Below, piece by piece: positions 1,314 through 59,689 of a stretch of DNA of 64,000 bases (position 1 is the stretch's first letter; each line of letters starts with the position of its first letter). The DNA is from Marsupella aquatica. Its lineage: Eukaryota > Plantae > Marchantiophyta. A program made the position numbers and the translations under genes. The DNA lies in assembly GCA_973895155.1 (NCBI GenBank), contig OZ316895.1:21960558-22024557 (forward strand), in the 5' to 3' direction. The notes beneath the pieces were generated by a model that was not told the origin of the DNA, did no database searches, and worked only from the letters and a program-made list of their open reading frames with translations.

Positions 1314-1456
1314 AAAATGACCATACACATGGCGTTTGGCCACATTTTGTATTTACACCAGTACCGATATTATTTCATGTTTGCACACCCCCATATATTC
1401 TTCTACATGTTGTAACTATTTGCTTTGTAACTTTCAATTGTTTGCATTGTTTTTAG

Positions 1457-16830: not shown

Positions 16831-18009
16831 TTTCAGATTCCGAACTGTAAAGGCCACCAGAACCTATCTCTCGTAGTAGAACCCACAATTGATTGCTCCT
16901 CCTCCTCCTGCTGCTCCTCCTTCACAACGAGAATGACGCCGAATAAGCCCAGTTTTCTCTCTTCCTCGGACAGCCCGTCATTCATTACACAGAGAGTAAA
17001 ACATTTGCGTGCCAATGCGCCCCTCACCACGCTGATAAACAGACACCTCCTGTCGCTCTGTCTCCCCCTCTCTCTCTCCCTCTCTGTCTCGCTCTATTAA
17101 CTTCTCATTCAATCCGGCAGTTAGAGGTCAAACAAGGCCAAGCGCATTATCAGAGTGCACGCCAAGCGCATTATCAGTCCCCCATCAACAGCCCATCGAT
17201 CAATCATCGCCGTCATGCCAAGCTTGTGAATCAATAGCCCCCGCTACTATAGTGCGAAAAATCGTTCCACTCTCCACAAGACCAGACCCCCCGCTTCATG
17301 CCTCCGCTTTCCTCTCTCATCCTCCCGCTCCTCCGCCTCGTCCCATCACCTCTTCACACTGCATGCTGCTTGCTCAGCACCATCATTCAATCAGCACAAC
17401 CGCACTCTCGTCCGTTCCACAAATCCTTTCGCCTCCCCTCCCCTCCCCTCACCGCGCCATTATATCACTCATTCAACCATCATCACTCTATCGTGGGCCC
17501 GTGCGATTCTTCACAGTTGCTCCTCTAAATCACCGTACTTCGTACAATCCTTCCGCATAGAACTTAACGGTGCCATTCCGCATGGCATACGACTATAAGC
17601 TAGATCATCCGCCTATTGATCTTCCCTCCCCCTGCCGCAGACGACGACGAAGAAGAAGAAGAAGGGCCCAATTCAGCGGAAGGACAGGGCGAGGGGAGGG
17701 CACAGAATCAGAATCCTCGGAGAGGAGGAGCTGCAGCAAATTCATCGCTTCTTCATGGCGGCATCCATTTGTCGTGCCTGCCCTCGTTGTGCCTCCTCTG
17801 AAATTTTCGGCCTCGTCCGCTCCGCAACCGACCAACGAACGAACGCAACTACTGCGATTTCGTTTCGTGCGAAAACAACAAGATCTCTTCTCTCTCATAC
17901 TTCATCATCTTCCTCATCTTCTTCGTCTTCGCTTCGAAAGCCCTCTTCTCCTGCAATCCATACTTTTTGCACGCGTTGACGAGTTTCTTCCAGTCTACAC
18001 GTGTCTGTC

Positions 18010-31700: not shown

Positions 31701-33384
31701 GCGAAGAGGAACTCGTAAACGTCAAGCCCGGAAAAGGTATGGAACTTGGCTTCCTTCTGATCATGTGGATTTGGATGAAGAATCTATTGATGCATTGGTG
31801 ACAGAAGATGAAGATCCATCCTTATTTTGAGAGGTCCTAGCTTCTATGGAGAAGCAACAGTGGCAGGCAGCAATGCGCATGGAAATGAAATCACTTCATG
31901 ATAACAAGACTTGGGAATTCACAAGTCTACCTAGTGACAAGCAGGTTGTTGACAGCAAGTGGGTGTATAGGAAGAAAGATGGACCCACGGAGGATGCTGA
32001 GAAGATATTTAAGGCTCGGTTGGTAGCCAAGGGTTTTACTCAACAGAAAAATATAGACTATAATGAGGTTTTTTCACTCGTAGCAAAGTATTCAACAATA
32101 CGTGTGCTATGTGCCTTTGTAGTTTTATTTGATATGGTTTTAGATCAAATGGATGTTGTCACGACATTCTTATATGGTCGTTGGGGTGAGGTGATTTACA
32201 TGAGGCAACCAGAGGGTTTTGTGCAAAAGGGCAAGGAAAATTTGGTATGCAAGTTGCTAAAATCCTTGTATGGATTAAAGCAGAGCCCAAGGCAGTGAAA
32301 CAAGCGTTTTGATGAATTTTTGAAATCGCTTGGATTTGTGCGAAGCGTGTACGATCCATGTGTTTACATCAGGCGTGTGAACAACACAGGTTTTAAGCTT
32401 GTCATCCTTGTACTTTATGTGGATGACATGCTCATTGCAGCACAGGATAGGGGCGAAGTTGATAAGCTTAAGGCCCAACTCAATTCTGAGTTTAAGATGA
32501 AGGATTTGGGCACAGCCAAGAGGATCCTAGGCATGGAGATTGTCAGGGATGTTAACAAAGCCAAACTTTGGCTGACGCAGAAAAGATATGCAGAGAAGGT
32601 ACTCTCAAAATTCAACATAGCAGATGCTAAGGCTGTGAGTGTTCCTTTGGCAAGGCATTTCATTATTTCTGCAGCATTTTGTCCATCGGATGCGACAGAA
32701 AAAAGTTTGATGTCCAAAGTTCCTTATGAAAGTGCTGTGGGTAGTTTAATGTATCTCATGGTATGCACCTGACCAGACATAGCTTATGCCGTTAGCAAGG
32801 TAAGCAGATACATGGCAAATCCAGGAAAAGTTCATTGGGAAGCAGTGAAATGGATTTTGCGCTACATCAGAGGTTCCACTAAGAAGGGTTTATTGTTTGA
32901 TGCAAGTTCAAACAATATGAAAGTGCTTCAAGGTTATGTGGATGGAGACTACGCAGGTGATTTGGATAAGAGGAGATCAACAACTGGATATGTATTTACA
33001 CTTGCTGGTGGATGCATTAGTTGGAAGTCTACTCTCCAAAAGTGTGTTGCAAAGTCTACTATGGATGCCAAGTATGTAGCGGCAGCAGAAGCAACATCAG
33101 AGACCATTTGGTTAAAAAAGCTTGTCACGGAGATGGGCTTATCACAAGATTGTGTCTATCTTCATTGTGACAGTCAAAGTGCAATTTACACTGCCAAGAA
33201 TCAGGTGATGGATGGTAGGGTAAAGCACATTGATGTCCGCTATCATTTCATCCGACAGGCATTATCGGATGATGAGTTTGAGCTTGTCAAGATTGATGGA
33301 AAGCTTAATCCAGCGGATGCTTTTACCAAAGTATTAGACTCCAATAGTTTTTCAAGGCATTGTAATTATTTACAAATATTGTAA
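28756..33384 (+). pseudogene. Copia gag-pol polyprotein with frameshifts, stops and a MITE insertion
   Basis: gag EKFDG..WE, zinc knuckle CWKCDKVGHMKKDC, protease WILDFACSYH, integrase WHARLGH/HSDVWGP/RSDNGGEY/QNGVAER, RT KARLVAKGF/LYGLKQSPR/LYVDDML, RNase H DGDYAG/KHIDVRYHF. In-frame stops near 29892, 30744, 31828, 32296 and 32770. Confidence 0.95.
30864..31450. mobile_element. ~590-bp MITE inserted in the copia pol region
   Basis: TIRs CCCCTGGGCCCTCACTC / GAGTGGGGGCCCAGG. Target duplication (G)GTTATCAG (8-9 bp) on both sides. Removing it restores KCIFLGYQYDVKGY. Confidence 0.9.
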
Positions 33385-35356: not shown

Positions 35357-37577
35357 CCCCACTAGAGGTCCCTTCCAAAATTCCTGGCACCAGAGCGTGC
35401 CGCGTCAACAACAACCGCAACAAGCAAGACTCATCGGTTTTGTGAATCAAACTTACATTTTTCATTCGTGTTTGTGTCAATTTGGGTGTAAATTTTGGGA
35501 CGCCATGCCATAAAAAGAAATGTAAAAATTTAGAAATGTAAAGAGCAAGACGGGTAAAACTGTCACTATGTAACCGTTTTAGTTACGTATCCAATTTTAA
35601 AAATTAAATTCAAAGATTTGAAAAGTATTTTTCATATAATAAACAATGACTAATAACTAACTTGATAACTTCCTTGTCAATGGGTAACTAGCACATGGAG
35701 TAAGATTTCCAGCCTTTTGCAATTCAGGCAAACTGCCATGGTCGAAACTTGAAGTCAATGAATTGATACAATTCATTTGATCAGACATTGATCTGGTTTC
35801 AAATGGACTTGCCACAAATGGACTATTGAGTCTCTTGAGAATTTGGTTGCATGTAGCGAAAAGGCCTGATTTGACAACTGCTTGTGATAGATCACGTTGT
35901 GGACTTCGGCCTGCAAAGCAATGTATTCATGTGGCAATTGAAAAAATGTCAAACTGCTCAGGCCATCGCTGAATGGGTCCACAATGATTTTGTGAGAAAA
36001 TCTATCCTACTTGTTCAACACAACATGACTACCAGCTTCTCTTCCTAATCAAACTTCTCTCTTCTCAAAGCTAACTTTGCCCTTCTCCATTTGGTGAATA
36101 GCTGCGTCAAGGGCATGAGACTATTAACCTCTAATTCAAAATTAATCCGTGGACCCCCATGTTCATCCAAGGAATGTGCGTGTGATTAAGTGAAATCAAT
36201 TTTCATCAAGGCGGTAACTAACAATTTTGAGTCTCCCGATGGTGTTGGTGTGTGCTCGTACAAAAACAAATGCTCAAAAGATAGAGATTTATCAAACGGA
36301 AGGTTGAATGTGGAGGAATTGAGTTTTCTTATAGGTTTTGCTTACACATTGGAGAAATCATCTTTCAACCATTTGTTGATTGATTGTTTGTGAGTTACAT
36401 TGAGCATTACCGCCACAAGACAGACTGGAGCACAACACTCAACTATTGACAAAAGAGAGCTTGTCGATTTGGTGGGAAGAACACACAAAACGAACGAGCC
36501 ATCATTTCAAACAAAGGATTTGTAGTTATTTTTAAGAAAGCTATGGTGTGAAGGGAAGACCAACAATTGTTTCTTTGACATAGAGGCTGCATTTGGCGTC
36601 AACCTGTGTTTTCAGTTGAAGACTATCTAAGAGATGCAAACAATTCAAGCCGGGAAGCAAGCATTGTGGACCAGCGATGATGACATAATCAAAGAAATCA
36701 ATTTGTAGCGGCTAAGTTTGTGACGGTGACGAGATTGTGATATCTCTTAATCGAGAAAGGGTTTCCAATGAGCCTCAAATTGACAAATTTTGTCAAGTTC
36801 CACATGAGTTTTTGAATTTCTTTGCCTTTCTAATGAGTGTGAGTATAATAAATTTTGATCATGAGTTCATGAATTCTTTTAGCTTTCTAAAATTGAGTCC
36901 GACATCGACAAATTCATGTCAGATGTTGTCACGGTACTCAAGAGATCTGGAGATTTTCAATCTCTTTAGCTTTCTAATGTGTGATATTGAGATTATTTGT
37001 CAAGAAATAGAGAGATCATGAGTATCTAAATTTCTCTAGCTTTCCAATGAACCTAACATTGATAGATTTTGTCAAGTACTAAGGAGATGAGTTTTTAATT
37101 TTACTCTAACTTTCTAATGAGTGTGACATTGAGAGATTTTATCACGACATTACTAAAGAGATCATGAGTTTCTAAATCTTGATCTTGAATTTTCCAATGA
37201 ATCAAACATTGGCAGATTTTATCAAGTACTAAGGAGATTTATTATTTAGTTTTACAATGTGAAGCCAAAGGGATTTTAACTATGTACATTTACAATTAAA
37301 AAATACAAACATTTTGATATAAAACACTTATATATCTTTGACAAACATCAAAATGGTAACTTTGTTTTACTAAATGACATCTCTTCCTTTGTATTTTGGT
37401 TTTTTTTACGTTTAATATTTACGGCATGGCGCCCCAAAAATTACATTGCTTTTGCCACAAACAGGAATGTGCACGTTTGTTATTGCTAAAAGTAGGATCA
37501 TTCGTGTTTGTGACTGGTTGTGGTGATGTGGCGCAACCTCATGGCAGAGAATTTGCAAAAGACCCCTAATGGGGTCC
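35357..37577. mobile_element. Non-autonomous element with long imperfect TIRs; a second copy of its left arm (26909-27279 plus 33901-34100) is the copia target
   Basis: cccactagaggtcccttccaaa.ttcctggcacc.. at 26912 and 35358 is collinear over several hundred bp. An inverted copy ending gcaaaagacccctaatggggtcc lies at ~37350-37577. Confidence 0.65.
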
Positions 37578-38757
37578 ATAATTAGTCAAAGTCAGACTTC
37601 AGTGAAATCTCCAGAATTTCCAATTATTTGAAAATACATTGACAAATCTCTACAAATTAACAAGGCTCAACTACTAGAAAGCTTAGGGTTCGTTGTTGAG
37701 AAAAGCAGTCTTCTCAATTGATCTTGAGAAAGTAGTTTTCTCAACTCAAAGTGTCCATGGCACTTTAGTGGTCGAATATAGTGTCATCCAATGCCCAAAT
37801 CAACTAACTAAAAAAACTGTGCCTTGGGTTTATTAATGTTCTAAAATTAGCTAAACTATCTCAGATATCTTAAGTGTTTTAATGCCTGCTAGCAGAGCAT
37901 TATGAACCATATTAGCCTCTCAAAACCTAAGCTAAAAGCCTTCATTTTACTGATCATTATGAAGACTATTGCAAAATCACATTTGGATGAGGTAATTTAT
38001 CCTATATTTTCACTAAAATTTGTAAAACTATCTCAGCATAATAACGTGTGTTACCAGATCATTTTGGACCATAATTGACTCACACAACTTGAGCTAAAGC
38101 TAATATCACATACATTATTTTTACTCAAACAAGACCTAAAAGATGTAGCTAGGGGTCCACAAACTAATTTCTGCAACGACATCTTATGTGCAAAGTCATT
38201 TTTCCACACCTGACAACTTTTGTGAAACAATCTTTTTTCCGCATCAACATCTGTGGAGCTACATTTTCTGTGCAATGCATGGTATTTTGCTAATAACTTC
38301 ATATAACCTCTTATAGTTAGTTAGATAACACCAAAAATCAAAAGAGAAAAAATCACTAAGTCCATTAAGCCTTAATAATGCGCAGTAATTTACTGACGAG
38401 CCGCTTGTCCGTCGAACCCTAAGTATGCCCTACCTAGAAAGATGGTGAAGTAGTGCCACTGCTCGAGTCTCGTGGGGTTTTGCTCGTTGAATGCTTTTCC
38501 TCCATTGTTGTGGGGTTTTGGTCGCAAATTCTCTGCACCCTGTAGCTGAGTGCGGGGCGGTGTTTCTGATTTCATGACGAGTAGACATTCGGATTGAAGA
38601 ACAGACAGGAAGCTGGTGAACATCATCCGCTGCCGCATTTTACCGCACCACGAGCTTCGTTTGCTATCGCCTTCTTCACGCCGCCTCAGGTTGCTGAATT
38701 CCGTAGGAGTGTTGTTTTTGAGGAATTGGAATCAGCAGGAACGGGACGCTTGGAAGG

Positions 38758-40806
38758 ATGGGCGGAGAAGAGACCCCCCTGGCTGTAGGGGACGGAGCTC
38801 CTCCGGTCGTGAAGGAGACTGTTCTCAAGAAACGGAAAAGGAACGATGAATGGGCCGCGGTCAGGAAGGAGCGACATGACATTGCGAAAGCGAAGGCTCG
38901 TGCTAACAGCCAGGACACATTCAGGCGGGCGGAAGATTATGTGAAGCAGTTCCGGCTACAGGTGAGTTGAAATTTGCATCGTGTTCGCTGGCAAAAGAGG
39001 TTCATGCCGTGCAAGGGAAAATTTTGCACGGTCTGTTGTGGTTTGCAAGTCTTCTGATTGTGGTCGTGGATGTCAGGAGAAAGATCTGATGAGGTTGCAA
39101 CGAGAAAGGAAGAAGTTGAAGACGATCCGACCTCAGAAATTAGAAGCTAACGACAGATTGTTGTTTGTCATCCGTATTCGTGGGTAAGCATTAAACCCTA
39201 AATCTCTGTGACTGACCCTCATTTGTTGAACTTCTTGGATGTTTGTAAGGTGTAGGCTCTAGGTCTAGATTGCACCGTAGGTATTTTTGCGCGTCTTTAT
39301 TTGAATCGTTGATAACTCGAAGGAGCCTCGTATCTTTGTCGAACGTTTTCTCCTTTTTACCCCAAGAGCGTCAACTGTGAAAGGCTATTGCATTCGTGTA
39401 GGCTGCCCTTACTTCCCGATACCTTCTCTGGACGGCATTTGCTTATGTCCAGCTGTATCTTGTCTTTCCATATATGCATAAGCTCGGATGGGTTGAATTA
39501 TACCCAGCGCCTCGTCTCTGACAACGAACCAAGCTATTGTAGTACTCATGTGTCGGAATTTACCATCAGTTATGACTGAAGGTCGTCGTCCACTGTGCAT
39601 TGTTTATTTTCTAACTCTGATTAGGCTGATAGAGGAATTGAAGTGAGTTTAATTGAGGTATTCTTGTGGGTGATTTGCTTCGCAGGACTACGGACATGCA
39701 CCCAAAGACTCGGAAAATATTGCATTTGCTGCGGTTGAGACAGGTGACCAAGTCCATCCAGAACCCTGAGCCCTAAAGCCCCCCGCATCCATCATGTGCA
39801 CCTTCTCAAATCTTTTTCAATTTTCTTAGCACATACGGGTCTGTCTGACGCTATCCTTTGGATTCCATCTCGTGTTGCCGCCATGTCGCGCAGATATTTT
39901 TCGGCGTTTTTATGAAGGCAACCAAAAATACAATAAGCATGTTACGGAAGGTTGAACCTTATGTGACCTATGGGTAAGTTCCTGTTGATGTGAGAACAGT
40001 ACTGTATTGGACCACTTTTATACAACATCACTCAGGGTTTGTCTACTTCGATCGGACCGCATTCTTTCTCTTTCCACCCGCTTTTATGCTTAAAACAAGG
40101 CTGTATATCCAGTTTGCCAGTGGCGCTTGTTTTCTGTCATGGGACCACATTATTGACAGTTCGCCAGGGACCAACAAAAGAGCTTATCATCTTGCGAACC
40201 ACTCCCATAGCTGCTCCTCCTGCCTGAACTCAAATTGTGCCAAAGGTTTTGAAAGTTGGATTTTTTCCGCAGGAATCCAAATTTGCAGACTGTGAGCGAC
40301 CTTATCTACAAGCGTGGTCATGCCAAGGTTAACAAAGAACGGACAAGCCTGACTGACAACAACATCATAGAGACTGTGAGTATCTCATGCCTCACTGGGT
40401 TGCTCGGTCTAGGACGGTATCCTTTATTTCTCTGATGCAGGTTCACGTGTAACTTGGCTTTTGATTAAGCGTGCTTTGAGATGACTGGGCCCTGTTCTAG
40501 GATCAGTGCAATTGAATGGAACAGCGCTGAGGCGTTGTCATGTAAGCATTCTGGTGTCAAGCTAATGACTTGAGTGGGTGCTCCTTGCAGGCATTGGGGA
40601 AACACGATATTATATGTATTCCCGATTTGATCAATGAGATTTACAGCATCGGCCCACACTTCAAGGAAGCAATTGAGTTTTTATGGCCCTTCAAATTATC
40701 ACCACCTCCAAACGGTGGTTCAAAACCAGGCAATCACTTTATAGAAGTTAGCGATGCAGGGAATAGGAAGGACAAAATTAACGATCTTATCTATCAAATG
40801 AATTAA
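38758..40806 (+). CDS. RPL7: Ribosomal protein L7/uL30-family protein, probably the divergent RPL7-like (Rlp7-type) paralog; exons 38758-38961, 39077-39183, 39686-39743, 39894-39973, 40273-40375, 40591-40806
   Basis: [112 protein letters not shown]. All introns are GT-AG and phase-consistent. Confidence 0.93.
39193..39201 (+). promoter_or_regulatory. Telo-box (AAACCCTAA) at the start of intron 2 of the RPL7-like gene
   Basis: Exact motif present. Telo-boxes are characteristic of plant ribosome-biogenesis genes, but function at this site is untested. Confidence 0.4.
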
Positions 40807-41499
40807 AATCAAAGTTTCCACACCTTCTGTGATGGGTTTGCGGCCTGTCTCAATCAATCTGTTGCGGACACCCTCATGTGAACCCCTGTATGTAATTGAA
40901 ACATGTGTCTACTGTAGATTTTCGGGTAGTCTCATGTCAAACCTTGTCTCTATAGTTTTCAAAAGGTAGTGTCATGTCAACTCATGTACAAGCTTTCCCT
41001 GAAATAATCTTAAATTTTATAACAGCGAAATCCTCAAGCGGAGGGAAGCCCATCAGCACCAGCCAAGAGCACATGAGGGACAACTCCCACCCACGTATGC
41101 GCTTTAATATGCTGCAAAGCATTGTAAATGTTTTTCCAAGTTTCACAAACACAGCCTAAAATTTTGCTCCACGGCTGAAATTTCAATAATCATTTAGTTT
41201 CCTAGTTTCACAAACACAGCCTATAATATTGTTCATGGGGCTGAGTTTTCAATAATTAATCGTTTTTCCTGCAAGCCATCTTCAAAGTGGAACAGTTGGA
41301 AGCAATACACACTCTTTCACATCAAAATGTCAAGAATATTCCTGAAATAAGCATTTTCTAAATTTCACAAACGCAATCTAAACTTCTGTTCTGTTCCAGG
41401 GTCTCAACTTCAAATGTTTACCTATTTTCTGGCAAATTGATATCCATAGAGTATTTATAGGGAGTGTCAAAACATAAATGAGATACGACCAAGTACATA

Positions 41500-42965: not shown

Positions 42966-45171
42966 TGATGCGCCCTAATCCATGGCACTAATCCATTTCC
43001 AAAGCGGAACAGTTGGAAAGCAACCGTCGGGCTCCACTCTCTAACTACCCTTCCTAACAGCTCTCTCTTCATCCGCCATTTAGCGGAGCAATCATCCCCC
43101 GGCTAAACAAAACGCCATAGTTAACGCCTACTAGTCTTAGCAGTACCGCATCACGACTGTCTGCCTCCTCCACCTTAATTAACCGCCCCTCTACTCTGGC
43201 GTCCCCAGCCCTCGGATCGACTCCCCCCCCTAATCCATCGGTCCGAACCCATGTTCCGCCAAACCGGCGCCAGTTCCGCCAGTTCCGCCATCGTCTGATT
43301 CGCGAATTGCGTTCGTAACTTTTCTTCGCGGAGTTTACTCTTTTCCTCTTTTGCTGTCGAGGTTCTCGAGGATTGGAAATCCTTCGAGGTCGTGGCGAAT
43401 TGGAAATCGTTCTTCTCAGCGCTGTGCAGCGAGCTAAGCAGCTCGGCAGCGAAGCGAACGAGCGAGCTAACGGTCGAGGAAGCGAGAAGAGAGTGAGTGA
43501 AAAGAGGTAGACGCTGTGCTTTGTGTTTTTTCCCGTCTCTGGCGAGCATTTTCTTTCTTCTCAACTTACTGTGTTTCTTCTAGCTCTCCGCCTTTTTCGG
43601 GGATTGTTCAACGACAAATAGTTTGTTGATTGGTTAGGAAGTGGAGTTGTTGACAGTTTTTCCCTTGGTCGATGGACGCAGTTCATTTTGTCCCTTCGAA
43701 CTTTACAGCGAGCTGCGTACTACAGCATGGCGCAAACGAGGGAACTAGCGAATTAGGAAGCGAGCGGAGTTGGTGCATTGATCGAGTACGAGACCCGTGT
43801 GCAATGCCTTATTTTTGTTTTGTTTCTGAAATGTGTTTTTAGCTCTCCGATTTTCTCGGAGCTTGTTCAACGATACCAAGTAATTAGATTGTCTACTGAT
43901 TAGCAAATTGTGTTGTCAATTGATGGCAACAAGTGCTCTCGTTGTCGACCATCGCAATTTGTGTGCTTGATTGATGACCTCGTGTGATTTCTAGAAAGGA
44001 GTCAGCGAAAGTCTGTTCTGTTAAAAAAAGAATTCTTGTGGAGCCTAGTCTGTTGCTGTTGAAGTAGTGGAGATTTGGAAAGCGGTCGTCTGCGTACCGG
44101 TCACCGTTCCTTTTCCTTCGCACTTACAGCTAACAAGGCAATTCTATTGAGAAGCGAACGATTGATCAAGCAAGCGAGCGGAGTGAGTGAAATTGTCTAG
44201 TACTAGACCCACATGCGTTCCGTTTTTTTCGTCTCTGTTAAGTTCTTTTCTCTCAACTCTGCTTGTAACCCTCCACCTTTCTTGGGGATTGTCCAACGAT
44301 AATTTCTGACTCCGTTACCAGTTAGTTTTGTCTGCGGTCGTCGATCTCGAGGGGAGGAGCTATACCACTTGCAAAGGAATGTGGAGAGCAACCCGCGGTA
44401 CGTTGTTCCCGCGCAAGGTTTCTCTCATTTTGAGACTTAGATTGTGGGTTTACACTCGCAGCATCCACACGTCCTGTGACACTCGTACACCTGCGCACAG
44501 TTTGGGCACGGGCTTGAAGTTTGGACATTCGAGCACGTCACTGTCGAGACCTATTAGCACCATCTGGACAAAATTGCCGTTCTCTCAATTCTATGGGGGC
44601 GGATTCGCTCTTTCTTCGCTGTATTGCTGTCTACCGTAAATTTCCCGTCGATCAGTTTATTGATTGCTGTCACGAAAGTTGTTCATTGATTAGGAATTGG
44701 AGTTTAGTGATCAATATTTTATCCATATCCTTATAGTTTACTGGAGCTGCGGAAGTTTATTGATTGTTGTTAACAGTTGTCTTCCTCGTGGATTGACCCA
44801 ATTTATGTGGTTGGTTAATTGCGTCGTTTGGTTTCTAGAAATGTGGTTAAGAGAGGATATAGTGAACGAAAGTCGATCCTGTCAAAAGAGGGAAGAGACA
44901 AAGAGCAAATGCAGACCCCAATTTTAAAACAATGGAGAGCTGCCTAGTTGGTTTGCAGCAGCAATCCTCATGCCAATGTGCTCCCTGAGTAGTCGTCAAT
45001 GTGATTAACTTGTGGTTCGTATACAGGAAAGAAGGAAGGAAGGAAGACTTAATTCAGTGAGTCTCTGGAGGGTTTAAGTACTTTGGTATCAGAGAAAAGT
45101 GTGCAGAGCGGTATAACGAATTGGCTAATGTAGGGACACATTAGGACTTTAGCAAGGAGGGAGTGGGCAGG

Positions 45172-47082
45172 ATGAGTCCGGATCTAGAGCCTCAGAGAAA
45201 TGCGAGACACCAGCAACAGTTTGTGTTCGAGAAGCAGCGGCAAGAGGTCTTGGGTAGTGACGTAAACGAGGTGACTGCGAGTGTGGCTGTTGTCGAGACG
45301 TCGTTGCCGCAGGAGAACGGCGATTCACCAGGTTTGGATACAGCGAACAAAACTGGAAAGGAAATAGTGGCAGTACCAGCAGCACAGGCAGCAGCAACTT
45401 CAGCAGCTCCAGTGAATATCGAGGATATGGATGAAGAATTAATGCAGGAGCAGGCGCAAGCAGTGGTCGAAGAGCTACAGAAACGCGGGGCGTGCACAAC
45501 GTTAGCTCTGGCGAAGATGTTGGGACTGGAGAAATCCACTCAGTTGAATCCCTTGTTGTATCTTCTCCTAGAGAAAAATGTGGTAACCAGAGTAACGGAT
45601 TTTCCCCCCATCTGGTCTCTGTCGCCCACATTCCCAATGAGCTCTCTTTCTTCCTCAACTCCCGCCGCTCCTGCTCCTGCTCCTGCTCCGACGTCGTCCT
45701 CCCTTGGTCCTTCTGCAATCCCGGCTGCTTCTCCTTTGGCGTATACTAGTGTACAGCCAGCTCGAATTATGGCTGAACAGCCTCAAGCAGTTCCCCGCCA
45801 CCCAGCTCCAGGGACTATCATAACATTTCCTCCAATTCCTGCTGAACGCGCAATAAAGCCAATCATCACCTTTCCGCCAATCCCTGCTGAGTCTCAGGTT
45901 CCGTCTGAGCCGGCTGCAACATCTGGTACACTGCAACAAGCTGATTATTGGCAATCTTTGTCTCAAATGTCCGGTGGAAAGAATCACCGAAATGGAGGTA
46001 CGTAACATCATCTTCTTTCCTTGATAGAAATTTCTTGAAGTGCGGAGTTGTCAAATACAGACGAGGAATAGGGAATCCACAGCTGGAAGGGAGAGAGCAA
46101 CAGAAAACAGTGGATGTACAGCCAAATCGAAAGTCCAGGCCGATAGTGAACGAGACAGTCTACCAGATTACCTAATTAAAGTCAATCGAATCAGCATTTG
46201 GTTCCTCATAATTGCTCTTACAGCAGCAATCTTGCGGGAATTTGTCATGATAAAAGCTCACCTCTAGTGACGCTAGGCGTCTTGCACAATTCTGAACTTG
46301 ATTCAGTGGAACCTAATGAGTTAATGGAGCGACCAGAGTCGTTTACTATCTGGGGACCTGGAAAGTCTCAATCTATACAACACTGCCGTGCTGCAAGATT
46401 ACTATGCACTTTAGTGGGACGTTTATCCGAACGTGGTTGGGAAAGTTGATTGGGCTTTGTCCAATGTATTGAACCATGATAGCACTCGACATATTACAAA
46501 AGTCCAGGGTTTACACAGCAGGGTTGATGAAGGCCAAGAGTAATTGAACCCCAGGCCTTTAGAATTCAGCAGTATATGTCGTGAAAAGCAGTTCTAGAGC
46601 TTGTATTTAATTTCGTAAGATTCTGGCACTAATCTTAATGATCTGCCTTCACGCATGGTCTTGAGCAGTTATGGTGTTTTTGGCTCATCGTTTGTTGATC
46701 AGGAGGAGGACCGCCATTCAAAAAATGGAAGAAACAAAAGAATCTCTCCGAGTTACAGTTGCGCCTTTTGAAAGAGCTCAAAGAAAGGGGACCCACTCGA
46801 ACACTCGAATTATCTAAGATTGTGGGGCTGGTGACAACCCGTGACGTGAATCCTTCAATTTACGATCTCAAGCAGAGGAACCTTGTGGTCAAAGTGAATA
46901 ATGCACCACCCGTATGGCAGCTGAACGAACCAGGCATGAGCAAGGCCCAGTTTCTTTCTGGAATGGAGGTTGATGAAGACGAGGATCAGTCTGACAGAGA
47001 CACTCAACCTGGGGCAGCCTTTGGGGGGGCTCCAATAGCCGTGAACTCTCAAGGGATATCGTCTCTCTCTTTCTTCCATTGA
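45172..47082 (+). CDS. Protein with two Z-alpha-like (Z-DNA/Z-RNA-binding) winged-helix domains; exons 45172-45997 and 46703-47082, ~401 aa
   Basis: Domain 1 (~45433-45624): EQAQAVVEELQKRGACTTLALAKMLGLEKSTQLNPLLYLLLEKNVVTRVTDFPPIWSL. Domain 2 (~46741-46926): ELQLRLLKELKERGPTRTLELSKIVGLVTTRDVNPSIYDLKQRNLVVKVNNAPPVWQL. Both have N-x3-Y and PP-x-W. Phase-1 donor GAG|gtacgt joins phase-matched acceptor atcag|GA. Confidence 0.85.
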
Positions 47083-48795
47083 CATATTGTGCACCTGCAA
47101 GGTATGTGGTAGTCATCGCAATTTGGACCTCCAGGGTGGCAGTAGGTGATGCTCTACTCGTTGTGTCTTGAGTGCAAACAACAACAGCAGTGTTTAGGAA
47201 TTGATTGCAAAACAAGTATCAAAAGTCCGAGGGTGCCTTGACCTCATTACCCGCGAAGAAAGTGGAAATTAAAGCTTTGCAGGGAAATTAGTTATCTGTT
47301 TGTATTTGTCGAATACCCCCGGTCGTGAAGGTGATTGTACCGGAGGTATTCCAATTGCAGCTCTTAGTTCATCCTTCAGTTAGAGAAGGAGCTGCTAACT
47401 AAGCCTATCCGTACCCATGTGCAAGGGCCTTTGTGTCGCCAAGATGTGGCTACCACGATTTGTGTCTATCTAACTTATGGACGGAAGTGTGTAATTTGTG
47501 CAGGACAGTGCGGAATTGCCATGGATTGTAATGAAACATATTCCTGAAATCAACGTCCTTCAAGCAGTATTTCCTTAGGAGCAAAATTTTGTCCTCAGCT
47601 GAAGTGAAAAGTCTTAGTCTTTTCCTGCTACAGAGAAGTATATAGATAGGTGGCATAGGTGTAACTTGGTTAGTGGGTGGTCGAGTCCTTGGCACACTCC
47701 ATCTGAAGTCATGAGATGGATGATAAGTTTTTACCTTCTAGCGCATTCCAACTGCTCGAGTTTTTCTACTTGATCAAAACTGAGAATTGGATTCAGTTTA
47801 AACGTCTGGATGTAGCTAATGACGATTGTTATGACTTAAATGGAAAGCGAACGTTTGATTCTCTATCTTCTGTCTCTCGTCTTTTTTGTTTGTAGTATTA
47901 GTTGCCTGTGTTGCCATGCAGGTCTTGCGTAATATCGTCATGGACCTTGCAATTTTCTTTTGTAGGTTTGTGCTGTCATTTTCGATGTACCGTGGCATCC
48001 CACAAAGCAGAACAATTTGGTGATGGAAGCTAAGGAGTGTTTTCCCGGTAACCATCTTGGAATGGGACCAATAGGGTTTGGAAAGGGTAATTAGTTATCT
48101 GTCCCATAGTCGACCTTTCGCCCAGCACGCACATTTTGGTACATCAGTCGACCTTTACAGTTTGCTAGCTATTTCTTGCAGAATGCCCTTTTCCCAGTCT
48201 AGGTCACAAGTGCAACATGAAAGACATGGCGACAATGAGAAATATTATCCAATAATTTGGTACAATGAAAAACACCATGGCTATGGCACTTTCACTGAGG
48301 AGACTTTAATCAATAACATTTTGTCCAGTAAATCGATGTGCACTTCGCATTGTGGAGGAGACACACACCAACTCGTCCGACTCTGGCAGTTTGAAACTCC
48401 TGCCAACGTTTTGAACAGCTTGCGCCTCTTTCTTTTGCCTTGAAACCGAAAGTCGAATCACCTATCAGAAGATGGAGCTTCCGCCTTTGAACGTGACTGG
48501 AATCATCCCAATCTTAAAGTTCGATCCTGAGATCTACATGAACGAGCTTTTCGACCTTCAGGTTGAAAGTGAACGAATGACAGCATAAATTTCTTCAGAT
48601 ATCCCCTAGAATCGTGATTTATGGGTTAAACCTTGAACGTGTTACTAAGGGTCCATTAGATCGTCCTGTACACATAGGTAAGCACGTTATTAAGCGACAA
48701 ACTACAACTCTGTGACGCAACATTCGTTCAGGCACGAGGATGTTGGTTTGAACATGAGCTAAATTTCAACAAAGAGCTGAAACAGAGAGATAAAA

Positions 48796-48869
48796 TGTTT
48801 CCGTCCAGGTTCGAACTGGAGACCTTCAGTGTGTTAGACTGACGTGATAACCAACTACACCACGGAAAC
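48796..48869 (-). tRNA. tRNA-Val (anticodon AAC)
   Basis: Minus strand GTTTCCGTGGTGTAGTTGGTTATCACGTCAGTCTAACACACTGAAGGTCTCCAGTTCGAACCTGGACGGAAACA: acceptor stem GTTTCCG/CGGAAAC, anticodon loop CTAACAC, T-loop GTTCGAA, followed by a TTTT terminator. Confidence 0.97.
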
Positions 48870-50877: not shown

Positions 50878-52884
50878 TAAGTTGTTGGAAAATGGAAAGT
50901 GAAGCTCACTTAGCTTGGGTTTGAAGAAAGCCAGTCATTGATCGGTCAACACACTGCATTGCATGATGGGCTACTCAAGTACTCATAATCCTGTAGGGTC
51001 TGGCTTGTGACTCCCAGTTTCTCCTGGATTTTACTTTTTTGTATAAGTAAAGTGCTCCTTTCAATAAAAAATAGCACAATTGGCGTGCATATTTGTGTGG
51101 ACTCAAAAAGGTACTAATAAGAAACATCTACAACTATAATAAGGGATCTCATTTTTTTTGTCCATAGTCCCAATGCAAAAAAGCTCCTAAGTAGGAAAGA
51201 TCCTCAAACTGTTGGATTTGTTTGGCTGTTGTCCCTAACCATTGATGGAGGGAAAGGGCAACCCTGGCGCATATTGTGCCCCATAAATGCCCTGGCCCGA
51301 CTAGCTATGGGCTGGCCTCCTTGCGCTAAGCACAGCCATAGGGCGCCCTCGTGTATTTATAAGTGAACATGTAAGAGAGGTCTCCTGATCAGCCATGGTG
51401 CAGGACACGTACTTGTGATTAATGGAGTCACATTAGACAATGTGGCCCAAGTCTAATGTACATATCCATTTCTTTGTTCTGCCACAAACATGGAGCCCGT
51501 TTCAATTGCAAGGCATTGGCCATTACACCATTAGGGTATCATGTAATGCTTCAGTGGACATTCATGCCCTATTTGATTCCATTGCTTCGTTCTGTCACAA
51601 GTCTGGGGGCTGTTTCAATCACCAGGCATTTTCAGTAACACCATCAGGGCTGCTTTGTTCTGTGCATCCAAAATGGAATTTGTGGGCCGCCTTCACCAAT
51701 TGTCACAGATATGTGTGTAGGTTGTTTACAGATTGACATGAACGGCTTTGATAGAGTTAATGGACTTTGATAGACCCTCTCAATTGACACCGGTTCTCCC
51801 TTAGATCAAGTTAATGGATTTTGATACACTCTCTCAATCAATACCGGTTATCCCTGTTTGTCGGAGAACAATCATGTCGTCAGACTGTTCACTAAGAGTG
51901 CTTCCCGATTATACTTGGGGAAGGCCTTCTTCGGTTCAGGACAATGCATCATTGAAGGAGGATAATGATTTAACATTTTGTAGTTCAGACGTAGCAGCAG
52001 CTCAAGGACGAGGTTTGTGAGGAGGAAATTGAGGAGTCCATTACTTCAAGGCATACAAAGTAAAGTGTGGTTGAGGCATTCAATGTTTGTGGTACTTTCC
52101 TATCCACATGCCCTATTGGAACAACATTCTTCATCAAAGTATATGAAAAAGCAAATACATACCACGCTTGGCTTTGCATGATTCCATCTGCTGGGTATTC
52201 TCTCAATGAACTTAAGAGACGATTCCACTTGAAAAAGTCATGGGCGGTTACAAGATTTTACAGGGATAAATATAACTCATGACTGATTCTCTGATCAGAG
52301 TATCTGATTTGGAATGAGGGGAATGAATTAAGCATAAGAAAAGCAAGCAACCTGCATTTCGACGATAGAGGGTCTTGAAGACCTGGTTGATAGTGTTGGT
52401 AGGGTTTCAAGTGGACTCAGTCCATGCAAAATGCCATGTACAAATTATCCGTGGATATGCGGGGTGGCACTTGCAAGCAATAGACCTGATTACATGTTCC
52501 TGATGTCCGTCTGAGATGTCGTTCGTAAGCATCCTAAGTAACTGATCTAGACAAACGGTAGTTACTGGTCTCGACAAACAGTCTAAATTCACGGACACTC
52601 TCATTGTTGTCTCCTCTCTGTCAGGATTGGGAGATTCTCTGTATTGGAGATCGTTTTTGAGATATTATTATTAATCAACAAAGCAACAAATGCACCGTCT
52701 TTCCTGACAGAACCAGGCCATTGAAGTCTTGGACGCTTTCACGCTAGGCTATTCTTCAATAACACTGGGAGATTCTTTGTACTTGGGATGGGTGTACGAG
52801 ATGCTTTTCATTAACAAAGCCCTGAACTAATCAATTCTCCTATGACAAGAAAGGCTGCCTCTTGAAAGGCTGCCTCTTGAAACT

Positions 52885-55792
52885 ATGGATGCTTTAATTC
52901 TAGGCTGTAGAGGTTGTCCCCACACACTATCCTCTTCAAACTCACAGACATTGGGCAACCCACTGAGCCAAGTGCGGCAAAAGCATAATCGAATTCAAAA
53001 TCTAAGAAGGTATCCTATAGCTTGGCCCCTTCTCAATATCTTGGGCAGAAAATCCAAACCAGCACAGACCTGCAGAAGAGATCAGCTGTGCATGTGCAAA
53101 GGGATGCTTGTCGCCGTTCCAAAATTGACATCGTCAGAACATCAAAGGGGGTTGATCTGGAGCGCATACGAGTTTGAGCCTGACGATTCGGAAGGGGCCA
53201 AGGACAATGTTGCACGGTACAATAGGACGGTGTATGATCAGGCGGCATGGGTCCATCACCGCAGTGCTTTGAGACACGGGAGAACAATTTTATCAATGAT
53301 GGGTTCCAAAGTTGTTGCACCAGTGGTTCCTCCAGTCATGGGTCTGACTCTCAATGCTGTGGGCCTGGCCGTGTACAACCAGCTGATAGAGTCACATTGG
53401 CTACCTTCCTGGTTTCCTCTCCTTCATGTGCCTTCTCTCCCTTTCCAGCTACTGGCTCCAGCCTTGGCTCTTCTCCTTGTATTTCGGACCAATGCTTCGT
53501 ACTCTAGATTTGACGAGGCAAGGAGGGCGTGGGGCTCAACTGTGACAAAGACCAGAGATATAGCCCGGAAAGCTTTGACTTGCATAGTGGACCCTTGTGA
53601 TGCAGAGAGGGTGAACAAAATGCTGCGTCACTGTGTAAGTCGGGCTCCATCCTTTAAGCCTCTTGTATGAACGTGTTTTCCACCGATGGTTGCCCCAGAG
53701 TGCCCACTTAATTTATCTATCTTGCTGTTATCCTTTGAAGATTGTGTCGGGTAGCGACTTCCACATTTCACACTATGGCACATCACATTTTGCTTCTAAA
53801 ACCAGGACGCATTGGTGAGAGAGGACATGGTTGCTGGTTCCTTTGGAGCCGTATTGTTGAGAGTAAGCGTGCAAGTGCCATTGCCCTTGTCGTCCCTCTC
53901 AGCATCACAAATGCCCAGAAAAAATATTTCTTCAGACAAGGGAGCCTGAAATTTAAATTCAATCCAAATCAAACACAAGAAGAAGAAGAAGCAAAGCACA
54001 CACCATATAATAAACGCAAGGTGGAAAAATTGAAACAAAAGACAAAAATGTTGCAAAGCATTTAACAATATTTTGGGCCTCTTGATTTTATTTTAGAAAG
54101 TACTAAAATGATATTTCAAAAGGAAAAGTTGCTCTAGATAAGTGATGTGTTGAAAAGAAGATATCAGACAGCTTTGAATTGAGGATTTGAAATGTGTCTT
54201 GGAGCGAGTTATTACATTTAGGGTTAGAGTAGAAGGCATTAGACAGAGCCTCGAGTGAAATGTTACAAGAAAGAGTAATTTAAGGTCTCTTTGCCTCTGC
54301 AGGCAAAATTGTTTATAAACAGATTTAGCCTAAACAGCCTTGCATTGAGGATTTGAAAGAAATCTTTGAGAGATTTATTGCATTTTGGTTTTAAGTAGAA
54401 GGCATTAAACAGTGTCTCAGTGTGAAAAGTTTGGATAAAGAGTCAAATGTCTCTTGCCTCTGCAGACAAAATTGCTTATAAACAGATTTAGTCTAAAGAA
54501 GCTCGTAGGTCTTTCCCCATTTGGGAATGGGCTGGGAGTTCATTTAGGGGACATCACAAAAGAGACCTAAAGAGCCAGAAATCATCTGCATATGTCTAGA
54601 TTGTAGACGGGTGTGACGAGAAAAAATCTGCAGGGGACTCTTCTTGTTCTTCATCTTTGGCCATTCTTGGACTGGGTCCCTTGACGTTAATCATGAACAT
54701 TATGGGTTTTCCTGAATTTCTTCCAGTCAATGTGTACTTGTGAGTTCACGACCTTCTCAGTACCTCACAAAGAATAATCTCCGAGACTTTAAACCACCGT
54801 GTATTTTGTTCAGGTAGCATTTAGCTTCTGTATGAAAGAATACCTCCTACAGGAAGGAAAACTCAAAGAGGACTTGACATTTTTACTTGAGGAGGAAGAG
54901 TTGGCTGCCCTTTCAAAAGTGCCTGATCAACCGACCTTTTGCTTGATGACTATGTCAGAAATTATACACGACTGCAATATTTCTGATACAGAACGGGCTC
55001 TTATGGTAAGTTCTAAGGCAACATTGAATCCGAAGTTCCTTGAATTTCCTGACTGGACGCAAATAGACATGTGTGCACTTGAAGATAAATTTGAATGTGC
55101 AAGAGGATTTGAATGTGAAATTCAGTCAGACCTTTACTCGTTACAGTTCATTGCTTGTCAAAAATTTGCGTTCTGTATTTATCCTGACAGAACCAGTTAT
55201 TGCATTCATGGGATTTTTCAGAGTGAAACTGTCACCCACTTTTTTGACAACCTTGGAGCCTGTGAACGCATCTTTAAAACCCCAATCCCATTGTCATACA
55301 CGCGATTGACATCTCGATTGCTTGTCATCTGGCATATTGCCCTGCCATTAGCTCTCTGGGATCAATGCCGTTGGGCCATAGTTCCTACTACTACCCTTAG
55401 TGCTGCTGTCCTGTTTTGCATTGAGGAGGTAAGTCCCTCCTTTTGCCTAGTATCCAGTCACACATTAATCAATCATTTCTACCAGCTTTGAGGTAAGATT
55501 GTATATTGCATATTCTCTTAAAATACCATAGAAATAGAACAGTATGTTTCTGGTCAGAAAGTTCATTGCTCTACAAATGAAAGGGGCATAACTCTGAAAA
55601 TCACTATTATTCTGCATCCAGGTTGGGGTTCTGATCGAAGAACCTTTTGAGATTTTTCCCCTAGAGAGCCTATGCAATTTCTCTAGCAAGAACGTGGAGA
55701 ATCTTGTAAAAACTCATGGAGACTATCATAAGTACATCAAAGTCAAAGGCGACCATGAAAAGATGAAAAATAATCAATCCCCTGTAGTGTGA
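52885..55792 (+). CDS. Bestrophin-like (UPF0187/VCCN-type) chloride channel, probably plastid-targeted; exons 52885-53634, 54814-55005, 55222-55428, 55622-55792
   Basis: RTVYDQAAWVHHRS, LPFQLLAPALALLLVFRTNASYSRFDEARRAWG, GACERIFKTPIPLSYTRLTSRLLVIWH, LFCIEEVGVLIEEPF. S/R/K-rich N-terminal extension; GT-AG phase-0 introns. Confidence 0.92.
54170..54500. repeat. ~170-bp tandem duplication in intron 1 of the bestrophin-like gene
   Basis: attgaggatttgaaa...agtagaaggcatta.acag...ttgcctctgcag.caaaattg.ttataaacagatttag occurs twice. Confidence 0.8.
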
Positions 55793-58700
55793 GCCAGGAA
55801 GACGACCTCAAGTGTGTTGCTCGGGTAGGCACAAGATTTGTGTTGTTTAGACGTTCATGTGTTACAAAATTCAGTATTACAATGCTTTCCATATTAAGCA
55901 AGAAAAACTACTTCAGTATTTCAGTACACATTCAATGAATCTAAGGCAAGTATGAGTCTGATCGTACCCAAACAGAACTAGTGTCTCCAACAACTCTTGA
56001 TCAAAATCACAGCTCTGTTTGTTAGGAAGTTGTAGATTGGGTCTGTATAAATTATAGCATCATACTGCAGTGTATGGGCTGCTATTGCCAGCTCCATCGC
56101 CAAGAATAGTTGGACTTTTGTACACTCGATCCATCACAAAAAGGTTGATCAAGTTCCAGACGTCGAAACAAGTTTTCAAGCTTTAGATGCAAATGGAAAG
56201 GAAAGGCATCGGCCTTTTCAAAAAAAATATGAGAATATTCTGACCTTCTCTTGATCTGTTTAAGTAGCAGCTCAACTTGAATTCTTCCCCTGAGACGTGA
56301 AGAAATTTTTTAACTCAAATATGCATGCATTGAGCTCGAAGCTCGCTTTCTTTTAATCTGGGACAACATGGTTGACAGGAGAGTTGGGACTTATGCCTAA
56401 GGTGATTCTCAAACTCAGAGCTCCAACTTGAAACCCCCTTGAAACAGACCATGGACTGTAACACTAGTCTTTCAAGATCACTATGGCCTATCAGGTGTCA
56501 CAATCGCTGAATTCCAAGTCTACTAAAACGTGTTGTTGATAGTGTGAACCCTGGGGCTTGAGAATTTCAAATCTAAATGAAGATTAGGTTTCAATGTGTT
56601 TGCCATGGCAACTTATTGTAGAGGATTGTGGGCACCTGACTAACAAAATTTAACAGTACAAATTCTTGTGCTCAATGTTAATTGCAGCTGGAAAATCACT
56701 CGCCATGGTAAATGGCGCTCTGTCCACCCTTTGATTAGATTAATATGATGGCATGACATAAATAGACAAGCACAGATGCAAGACAATGTCATGACACATG
56801 AGATAGGCAGATGATTATAGCAAGGCATGACTAGCGCTAAGGGAGAACTGCAAATAGATTGCAAAGAGCATAAACAACAGAAACACTCAGCAAGATGAGT
56901 AAGCTTGTCCCTTACTGGACAAAAACATCTATTCTGAGAGAAAGCAAGTAGAAAGAAGAATGAGAGGCTAAGCCAACTCTTATCCAACTATACCCTAAAT
57001 GCTCCCAACCACACAGTGGGATAAAACAGAGAACGACTCAGACTTCTGTAAGTTTAGAACATGCATTCTGTCTTTTGCTTTGGCTAATGGTGGAGTATAT
57101 TAGGAAGGTATAAGGAACAATGGAGTTGTTTGCTCAGTTGACATGTACCAAAGACCCTAGTTGACAATAGGTTTTTTATGAAGGGCTATGAACCAATTTT
57201 TTAGCACCTTCAGATGCACCCATACATCTCAATTGTCTGCCCAAGCTGCCCTGAGCATTTTATCTCAGCTGTCTGCCCTCAACCCCTGCATCCCCAAGAT
57301 GAAAAAATCCATCCCAAAATTAGTTATAAAAATTGAAAATAATTTTAAAGAAAATTCTGAAAACTTGAAAACACTCTGGTCTTCGTGCCCTTGGGCCAGC
57401 GGAAGCCCGGATAGACCCAACGCTTTGTTAAAAAAAAACCAGATGGACTTTGGCAACCCCTATGGACCGAGCCAGATCATCATTTTTCACTAACACCTGT
57501 TATACTTATGTCCAAACTGTGTCCTGTAAAGAGTGTCCAGACCGGTTGCAATAAGTAGTCTATCCAAAAGTAGTCTATCCATTGTAGCCAGTATTCATTT
57601 ATGGGTCGCATTTAAAGTACATTCATACAATTCAAACCCAATGGGGCCACAAAATGCACTAATACTAGCGTTCGGTGCTACAGTCAAAATACATCCAATA
57701 TTGAGTGTCCAATTCTTTATGAGCATAATGAGGAGGCCTATGCGTTTCCTTATGTGAAGGACTTGTCGCTACAATAGTACTCAACGCTAATAAAAAAGGA
57801 CAAATAGTCCTGGAAATACCTCTCATATACACTAAAAGGGATGATGCCACCAAAAATTAGACCGCACCGACCCGATGCAATCCATACCTTCAACAAACTC
57901 CAGATCCAACGCAATATATGTTTTTGGTAGAATCTAATGATTAGAAGACAAAGCAGAATCATTATCCAAGCCAGCGGCAGTCTGCTTTCCATCAGGCCTA
58001 GATCAGTGGCCTCTACTATTAATGTAGGCCACGAAAGGTCCCCGCTCCAAAACCCTTGTGGCCCCAGGAAAAGTTGTGCTTTGAAAATCCGCACGACCCA
58101 GGAGCTAGCTTTTGAATTGTGCTCGCATCTCTGTCAGTCGAGTTGGACTTAATGGAGGAGGAGGCATGCGGAGCAAAAACCTTTTGCTGATCCCTCTTGG
58201 TGGGGATTCTCAATCTCAAAGGACATTTTGCTCCCCTTGGCTAATTGCCTCATCCAAAGGAAGATGATCTTGGTTCCAAAACTCCAATGTTTCAATCACC
58301 TTTATGGACCCACTAACATTGAGTGAACCAATCCTGTTCTTGATTGAGGAGACGCCAACCGTCACTCTCCCCTTCCCTGTATATCAATTTGATCCAAGTT
58401 GTGGAGAACGCATGGACCTGTCTCACTCAGTACCTCCTCTACGTCTACGGCACAAATTGGGACCAAAACGCAAGAGAACAAGCAAGGGAGTATAACGGAG
58501 AATGGTCACAACTATTGCAAGAAATACAAATGCAACTCCGAATATGTATCCAATGAACACTTCACCATTGCAAGGAATGACGCATGAACATTGGTTATCC
58601 ATTGAAATTCAACTTTTTTTAATACATCACACTCGGGGGATTGACTATCAAAAATCTCTGGAATCACGTGCAATCCAAAATAAGTATTTGTGATAGAAAT

Positions 58701-59689
58701 TAACTAAATTTTTAAAAAGCGTAGGAGGCAAAAGAAGGTATTATAAACTCATGTTTATAGAATATTCTCTAATATATACCTTTTATAAAATAAAATAATT
58801 TATTAATATTGAAAATGGAGAATTTTCTTGGAATAATTTTTTTATAAAATAGGTCTATTTATATTAGGCTAAAATTGCACGTGGTACCCCAAAATATACA
58901 CTTAGTTAACCCCCGAGATATCACATGAAACAACAAGAGCCAATGGGAAGAAAAGAGAGATACAACGACAACAAACGGCAAACAGCCAACTGTATCAATT
59001 GATATTAGAAAACATAGTGACAGGCCTATTAAAATGGCCTGCACAATATAGACGAGAACCCTATTAGGTAAAAAGCTAAACCTCCCATTTGGAATCACTA
59101 GTCACCAACTCGGTTCAAGAATCATAGCTTTTTGATCTATATGTGGACTCCGCTTTGTCGTCTACATACTTGCTTTGCCCAATGTCTTAACTGAAAAAAT
59201 GGTCATGCTAAACTTTTTATCCTTGCCTGTCCTCAGTCTAAGACCTTTAGTCTCCCATATAGCATCCTCACAAAATCTGCCCTTTGCACCATTGTTTTAG
59301 CATACAAAGGATCGAAGGACAAATGGGTTCTTCAGGGTGTCTACTACATTCCTAGCAACTTTCCTTTCAAGTCAAAAGTGCTTTTGAATATTCCACTATG
59401 ACTAGACAATTGAATCCAATTTCTTTAGTCAAAGTCAAAGAATTGGTGGAATGCTCGAGAGACTAGGATAACACTTAAAGGAAAAGTAAATAGCAATGAA
59501 AACAAAGTTGACGATCATTACTCAGAAGACTCGTCACTCTCATCATTTTCAGAACTTGATGTCCACCACATTCTTCTAGGCTTCATCATCTTTGGTTAGA
59601 TAAAACACCATTGCCAGCCTCATTCTTGTCATCAAAATCAAAATTAAGAATAGCATGGACTGAGTCTGTCATGCTTCTTACTCTTCCCC

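Follow-up and report, generated by a model that had tools for sequence, protein, structure and literature searches.

The window, that is, the whole stretch of 64,000 nucleotides analyzed here from Marsupella aquatica, carries a liverwort gene that is conserved from Calypogeia to Marchantia and encodes an enzyme-less protein with two Z-alpha domains, for which a role as a nuclear reader of Z-DNA acting through its second domain is the best reading of the sequence, with a probability that we put at roughly 45%. Profile, motif, and fold all place the protein in the Z-alpha domain family. To our knowledge, the biology of this domain comes almost only from the interferon immunity of animals and from the viruses that oppose it.

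All features of the gene lie on the forward strand. Coding exon 1 (45172..45997) codes for residues 1-275 and supplies one further base, the first of codon 276; its ATG agrees with the annotated start in Calypogeia fissa, and RNA contigs of two relatives overlie it. It is followed by a phase 1 intron of 705 nt with GT..AG borders (45998..46702) and by coding exon 2 (46703..47082), which ends at the TGA stop codon at 47080-47082, as in the annotated C. fissa proteins. The joined exons give 401 codons with a single terminal stop, thus confirming the spliced, stop-free ORF of ~401 residues that had been read from the DNA, and the junction peptide is that of the annotated C. fissa orthologs except for one extra Gly. 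The 45997/46703 junction, for which a check in RNA had been proposed, was recovered in relatives: the exact intron is spliced out, with the exons joined in frame, in contigs of both putative RNA runs (X1 and X2) and in neither of two other runs compared (X3 and X5). X1 and X2 stem from related organisms and from separate studies, and the splicing evidence concerns expression in these relatives. As a control, the neighboring L7-like ribosomal protein gene is spliced in X1 and X2 (five and three joints, respectively) and in neither of the two genomic-type runs; X1 and X2 thus behave as RNA, and the joint in the Z-alpha gene is therefore not that of an intron-less DNA copy. The six runs that contain part of the stretch, none of which is on record as RNA, are uninformative on expression in the window species.

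The transcribed 5′ leader extends at least from 45082 (45082..45171), since the X1 and X2 RNA contigs begin aligning at 45082/45083, and its sequence includes a minimal upstream ATG-stop at 45128-45133. A likely 3′ UTR (47083..47708) is indicated by X1 contigs of similar depth over 47108-47708 and by X2 up to 47158, in each case separate from the coding contig. A single DNA contig runs across the 5.5-kb stretch. Each exon encodes one repeat of ~64 residues, the two copies being ~35% identical, and a profile of the two domains gave no score above 7.3 bits in the other frames of the 64-kb window. The neighbors are the ribosomal L7-like gene, a tRNA-Val, a bestrophin gene, a CCCH zinc-finger gene, and transposons. 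Only two alternating purine-pyrimidine tracts occur in the window, both of which are short and neither of which is near the gene.

The two repeats are genuine domains of the Z-alpha family, as the original prediction held. Against Pfam PF02295, domain 1 (45436..45627, ~residues 89-152) scores 41.1 bits (E 1.8e-10) and domain 2 (46738..46929, ~residues 288-351) scores 31.2 bits (E 2.3e-7), with a cut-off of 21 and a runner-up family at 14.2 bits or less; the orthologs reach 59-62 bits for two stretches. An NCBIfam scan gave nothing above its cut-off. N126, Y130, P145, P146, and W148 of domain 1, as well as N325, Y329, P344, P345, and W347 of domain 2, align to ADAR1 N173, Y177, P192, P193, and W195; hence, the claim that all five contact residues are kept stands for both window copies, but it does not extend to domain 1 of some orthologs. 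Both window domains show the helix-3 motif NxxxY and the wing motif pPxW, and both have Pro at the position of ADAR1 Arg174, as do 116 of 146 related domains. The top PDB sequence matches of both are the Z domains of PKZ, ADAR1, and ZBP1.

The evidence on the fold comes from the model of domain 2 alone, since the full-length AlphaFold2 model (three-row alignment) had a pLDDT of 33 and was left unused. For domain 2, AlphaFold2 with a 22-row alignment, which consisted of Z-alpha domains and may bias the model that way, gave a pLDDT of 95.5 and a winged-helix fold of three helices and a hairpin. The first 10 Foldseek rows for this model consist entirely of Z domains from ZBP1, PKZ, or ADAR1, while VIA ranks the second domain of ZBP1 first (Z 12.1, rmsd 1.1, 60 residues), with MarR/ArsR winged helices close behind (Z 11.2, within 1 unit). 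The structural comparison that had been suggested as a check therefore returns ZBP1 and PKZ Z-alpha domains as best matches; however, because MarR-type proteins nearly tie, the fold alone is no proof of a Z-alpha domain, and it is the sequence motif that does the sorting. The nearest ESM Atlas clusters are generic bacterial winged helices only. Z-binding is not proven by prediction or fold, as the accessible part of PMC11298590 warns, which treats binding of Z-DNA/Z-RNA or B-to-Z conversion as the definitive criterion.

A search with exon 1 identified three proteins among 7,996 candidates, two from C. fissa (73-74% identical) and one from Marchantia paleacea, and the Marchantia domain 2 as query finds Mp7g05170 of M. 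polymorpha. These orthologs (CAM6121436 and CAM6120378 in C. fissa, Mapa_016115 in M. paleacea, and Mp7g05170/MARPO_0062s0008 in M. polymorpha) have the same two-domain layout, with domains that are 62-98% identical, and sit on megabase contigs in three liverwort species. UniRef automatically labels Mp7g05170 a 'Z-binding domain-containing protein', and the other database entries are hypothetical. Calypogeia and Marchantia represent two liverwort classes whose divergence was very early, and sequence comparison across them indicates that the gene is old.

The two-domain profile, run against 1.84 billion representatives, gave 228 hits. Among the 150 matches listed, the scores of liverwort-type domains range from 79 to 128 bits and that of the next domain is 56.7 bits; no ortholog from a moss, a hornwort, or a fern falls into this gap. 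Z-alpha is present in 106 of the 113 hits scanned, many of which are invertebrate ADAR1, and an organism is named for 3 of the 19 distinct hits looked up, all of them animals. Table S8 of PMC13069868, a source available in part, covers 115 bryophyte genomes (77 mosses, 31 liverworts, and 7 hornworts), 21 of which are listed with z-alpha, and 300 vascular plants, for which a z-alpha row is absent; its HGT cell for z-alpha is empty, and the accessible main-text passages do not mention the domain. The table gives no species, and we infer that the 21 bryophytes are liverworts.

The two domains are, by comparison among the orthologs, not equivalent. In domain 2, which is basic in the window, the Asn, Tyr, and Trp are kept in five of five distinct liverwort-type copies; its net charge ranges from 0 to +4, and its wing reads Pro-Pro in Calypogeia and Pro-Val in Marchantia. 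Domain 1 is acidic, with a net charge of -1 to -2 (-1 in the window), a property found in only 5 of 144 other domains. Between Calypogeia and Marchantia, domain 1 is 67-75% identical and domain 2 is 62% identical. The domain 1 Tyr is replaced by Phe in M. paleacea and by Ser in M. polymorpha, where the Asn is lost too, and its codon is changed to Cys in relative X1 and kept in X2 (as read from one X1 contig, among the 40 of 470 difference rows listed). Domain 1 thus departs from NxxxY in the two Marchantia species and, in all likelihood, in X1, which would amount to at least two separate losses of the Tyr, if the Tyr is ancestral. In the window species, domain 1 may still bind the Z-form, because all five residues are kept and because the domain resembles the Z-alpha of PKZ, a proven binder that has a Lys-Ser-Thr stretch similar to that of window domain 1 near helix 3.

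The domains are separated by a Pro/Ala/Ser-rich low-complexity linker (45628..45997), which aligns poorly to Marchantia and is likely disordered, judging from its composition. Sequence comparison reveals two copies of the motif Ile-Ile-Thr-Phe-Pro-Pro-Ile-Pro in the linker (45808..45894), which correspond to three looser Thr-Phe repeats in M. paleacea and to a degenerate form in M. polymorpha. Directly before domain 2, a basic K-K-x-K (46720..46731), a predicted monopartite NLS, is found at the same place in all five full or exon-2 sequences (the window, two C. fissa, and two Marchantia), and four-residue basic motifs commonly arise by chance. The C-terminal tail (46930..47079), acidic and then hydrophobic, is kept in Calypogeia-type proteins and is short or different in Marchantia.

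Compared with known systems, the protein is not ZBP1, ADAR1, or PKZ, since it is devoid of a RHIM and of any enzyme domain. RHIM motifs mediate RIPK1/RIPK3 signaling; their core tetrad, [IV]Q[IVLC]G, is absent from all six sequences scanned, and the Pfam scans show no RHIM family. The absence of a deaminase, kinase, or dsRBD, as noted previously, is borne out by Pfam scans of the window and the orthologs, in which the full-length orthologs show only z-alpha above the cut-off. The likeness to ZBP1 (DAI/DLM-1) consists of the two Z-alpha domains; its second domain is the best match of the domain 2 model (Foldseek E 6e-5, TM 0.86) and shares with domain 2 a helix 2-3 turn that is longer by one residue, which, along with the PDB alignments, upholds the proposed spacing like that of the second domains of ZBP1 and ADAR1. 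However, the liverwort domains are ~135 residues apart, are not N-terminal, and belong to a plant host, and ZBP1 is without the Pro-Pro wing that the Calypogeia domains possess (PMC13659236, in part). The original prediction of a ZBP1-like sensor is therefore disfavored: the RHIM-type tetrad is missing, the domains are not equivalent, and the NLS-like motif points to the nucleus.

ADAR1 p150 similarly combines one full N/Y/P/W domain with one that can lose its Tyr, i.e., Z-beta, and the nearest relatives include many Z domains of invertebrate ADAR1, but the order is reversed, with the degenerating liverwort domain coming first. The Z-alpha of fish PKZ is the best PDB sequence match of domain 1 (E 9e-6) and a near-best match of domain 2, whereas the eIF2-alpha kinase domain of PKZ is missing in the liverwort protein. 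The stand-alone viral Z-alpha proteins (giant-virus ZBPs, CyHV-3 ORF112, and poxvirus E3) are likewise enzyme-less with disordered flanks; in contrast, the liverwort gene is cellular, contains an intron, and lies among ordinary plant genes, and its product, unlike E3, has no dsRBD. Prasinophyte Z-alpha-PC4 (p15) proteins also place Z-alpha in the green lineage, with a proposed role in transcription (PMC11293857 and PMC11298590, both in part). PC4 (PF02229) has no match in the window or the orthologs and was found in the protein P0146; a metagenomic Z-alpha-PC4 protein is 43% identical over 46 aa, which is below the 53% over 59 aa of a metagenomic Z-alpha-methyltransferase, the closest single relative of domain 2.

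For the nuclear Z-DNA reader that we favor, the following mechanism is postulated. The K-K-x-K motif would import the protein into the nucleus, where domain 2 would grip the zig-zag backbone via Asn325 and Tyr329, the latter oriented by Trp347, and via the Pro wing, and would bind or stabilize Z-DNA, whether this arises on methylated alternating repeats or through supercoiling by transcription. As for domain 1, it may have been retained as a Z-beta-like module with a different task, such as protein docking or the binding of another nucleic-acid fold, while the disordered linker with its short repeats could recruit partners or drive condensates; the protein would thus be an adaptor in chromatin or transcription. 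Two giant-virus domains with NxxxY and pPxW flipped DNA, whereas domains without the N/Y did not (PMC11298590, in part), and the Asn, Tyr, and Trp of ADAR1 make the standard Z-specific contacts (PMC11293857, in part). The wing Pro-Pro motif, specifically its second Pro, is needed to flip RNA and is largely dispensable for DNA, according to the accessible part of PMC13659236. Since domain 2 of Marchantia has Pro-Val, an activity common to all orthologs would fit DNA or pre-formed Z-forms, and this activity, together with the NLS-like motif, favors a nuclear reader of Z-DNA. Z-DNA itself has been mapped in a plant genome, that of rice (PMC11933839, in part).

A possible, albeit doubtful, alternative is a Z-alpha-derived winged helix whose role is independent of Z-form binding, in which the protein would bind G-quadruplexes, B-DNA, or other proteins and the Z residues would be structural. 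The strong conservation of domain 1 despite the loss of its Tyr is what such a role would predict, and the Z-beta domain of ADAR1 binds G-quadruplexes (PMC13136903, in part); furthermore, generic winged helices score nearly as high structurally, and the ESM Atlas neighbors are generic bacterial ones. Against this, every liverwort copy has the Asn and Tyr of domain 2, despite changes at ~38% of the other positions of this domain between Calypogeia and Marchantia, and precisely these residues make Z-specific contacts in ADAR1 (PMC11293857, in part).

It is unlikely that the protein instead serves in defense against viruses or transposons as a sensor or adaptor for Z-RNA, which would act in the cytosol or in stress granules through linker condensation and partner signaling. 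The tandem layout resembles ZBP1 and PKZ, yet the RHIM tetrad, kinase, deaminase, and dsRBD are all absent; the Pro-Pro wing needed for A-to-Z flipping is present in both Calypogeia domains, yet Marchantia is without the second Pro in domain 2 and without the Tyr in domain 1. A disordered region combined with Z-alpha drives the condensates of ORF112 (PMC9881149, in part), whereas in the liverwort protein the NLS-like motif argues for another compartment. RNA viruses do infect liverworts (PMC11436993, in part); however, Mp7g05170 is missing from the accessible TMV differential-expression table of the same study, in which four of its neighbors are listed, a weak point that concerns one virus and one study.

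The origin of the gene was approached with two trees. A large quick tree of 155 domains scoring at least 28 bits was mostly unresolved, with 75 of 152 inner branches open; a careful tree included 54 of the 155 (9 liverwort domains, 36 top-scoring others, and 9 chosen rows) and only 65 columns. In both trees, domain 1 and domain 2 each form their own supported liverwort clade. Domain 2 groups weakly (93/79, not starred) with the metagenomic Z-alpha-methyltransferase and small tandem Z-alpha proteins, the latter of which, on visual inspection, look similar to the tandem domains of giant viruses given in Table S6 of PMC11298590 (in part). The branch of domain 1 is long and lies near amphioxus ADAR and another protein (97/90), a placement for which long-branch effects are likely. 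In AU tests, a single origin of domains 1 and 2 was not rejected (p 0.444), and neither was a grouping with the algal-type Z-alpha-PC4 domain, represented by one row (p 0.244), which in the free tree is placed separately from the liverwort domains.

In a viral fold search, the top two matches were Pithovirus proteins. Scans of metagenome contigs found no relatives among 596 and 137 pattern matches, and scans of viral contigs with P0157, P0089, and the domain-2 alignment likewise found none. With the two-domain alignment, 2 of 191 matches in viral contigs passed (L001 and L002, with equal score and length); L001 was rejected as a viral relative, since it is a phage tail-type gene that shares a short word only by chance. 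The ESM Atlas places P0157 in generic methyltransferase clusters, some of which are giant-viral. Capture of the gene from a virus is nonetheless plausible, because giant viruses are known to have been endogenized in early land plants (PMC11244446, in part).

Taken further, such a capture could have left a domesticated viral decoy, i.e., a giant-virus tandem Z-alpha gene that now buffers or masks Z-forms without signaling, which we regard as very improbable. The weak grouping of domain 2, the giant-viral look of the tandem proteins, the Pithovirus fold matches, and the early endogenization of giant viruses would all suit this scenario; however, none of those metagenomic proteins is linked to a viral contig, the AU test leaves the algal-type grouping unrejected on 65 columns only, the gene is flanked by ordinary plant genes, and the z-alpha HGT cell in the accessible Table S8 of PMC13069868 is empty. 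Although land plants are said to have no Z-alpha (PMC11293857, in part), contamination, a chance ORF, or a pseudogene is refuted by the megabase-contig orthologs in three liverworts and the splicing in RNA contigs of two relatives, in addition to the one DNA contig across 5.5 kb and the plant neighbors, in agreement with the original view of a real plant gene.

The broader history that we propose remains speculative and is, on balance, rather doubtful: land plants' first Z-nucleic-acid reader would be a tandem Z-alpha gene that was captured by a liverwort ancestor, possibly from a giant virus, gained an intron, and was maintained in both main classes of liverworts as a nuclear adaptor for Z-DNA, its two domains having independently evolved an ADAR1-like split into one that binds and one that is Z-beta-like.

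According to the accessible part of a 2024 survey (PMC11293857), canonical Z-alpha is not found in plants or fungi, having been discarded as plants became rooted, and is present in green algae. The conserved, expressed, and enzyme-less liverwort Z-alpha protein contradicts this stated land-plant loss. The accessible text of PMC11298590 lists prasinophytes, dinoflagellates, corals, and giant viruses and no land plant, and its Fig. 2, an NCBI-nr tree, could include a Marchantia leaf; PMC8775963 names no land-plant Z-alpha in the part available, and one supplementary file of PMC12513842 gave no match. No paper describing a liverwort Z-alpha protein was found in the literature covered, which was mostly open-access, and the expected novelty in plants holds to that extent, although the UniRef automatic label and the count in the accessible supplement of PMC13069868 already exist. 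What is known, then, is the Z-alpha domain; what is new is the liverwort host lineage and the effector-less, asymmetric two-domain layout, so far undescribed in the literature found.

Land plants of this lineage thus likely have a reader of left-handed DNA. Marchantia polymorpha is a haploid model in which knockouts are routine, and because it contains an ortholog, the role of Z-form recognition in cells that have no interferon, no RIPK3, and no ADAR editing is directly testable. If the proposed reading is true, plant Z-DNA, which has been mapped in rice, would gain its first candidate native reader.

The Z-alpha gene lies among plant genes on both strands. A Ribosomal protein L7-like gene (about 38730-40807, + strand), recognized by its Ribosomal_L30_N match, contains five introns, which were confirmed with RNA contigs from relatives. 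Downstream, a tRNA-Val (AAC) gene is located at 48796-48869 on the - strand, 1.7 kb from the Z-alpha gene, and is followed by a Bestrophin_2 family gene (about 52846-55800, +; family match), whose N-terminal extension is of the plastid type as judged by eye. A CCCH zinc-finger gene made up of several exons, its N-terminus rich in Gln and Pro, occupies about 11147-16900 (-). Upstream of the Z-alpha gene, the non-coding stretch 43735-44578 is covered at low depth by contigs of X1, a putative RNA run from a relative; this coverage may come from pre-mRNA, from a long 5' leader intron, or from a transcript distinct from that of the gene.

The window also carries mobile elements and repeats. Family matches (Transposase_21, DUF4218) identify a CACTA-type transposon at 498-4871 (+), and the ORF ahead of it displays a SET domain match (E 4.5e-6, above the cut-off), which makes it a possible histone methyltransferase carried by the transposon. 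Broken copia-type retroelements, recognized by eye, and a LINE-type reverse transcriptase (RVT_1) are found at 28639-33381 (+), 59654-62257 (+) and 63027-63998 (-), and a high-copy repeat spans 36000-38300.

Homologue searches retrieved Z-alpha domains joined to other proteins. In P0054 and P0157, encoded on JGI metagenome contigs of 1.0-1.5 kb, a class I SAM methyltransferase is fused with Z-alpha; among the matches listed, this Z-alpha-methyltransferase is the closest to domain 2, the second Z-alpha domain of the window protein, outside liverworts (53%). P0113 (ENA) is a DEAD/ResIII helicase with an N-terminal Z-alpha, possibly RIG-I- or Dicer-like, and P0060 joins an HtrA-type trypsin-PDZ protease to two Z-alpha domains, which could be a gene-model fusion. 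The Calypogeia fissa orthologs P0003 and P0004 are 96% identical and are located on separate megabase contigs, as expected for homoeologs in a polyploid, which we take this species to be.
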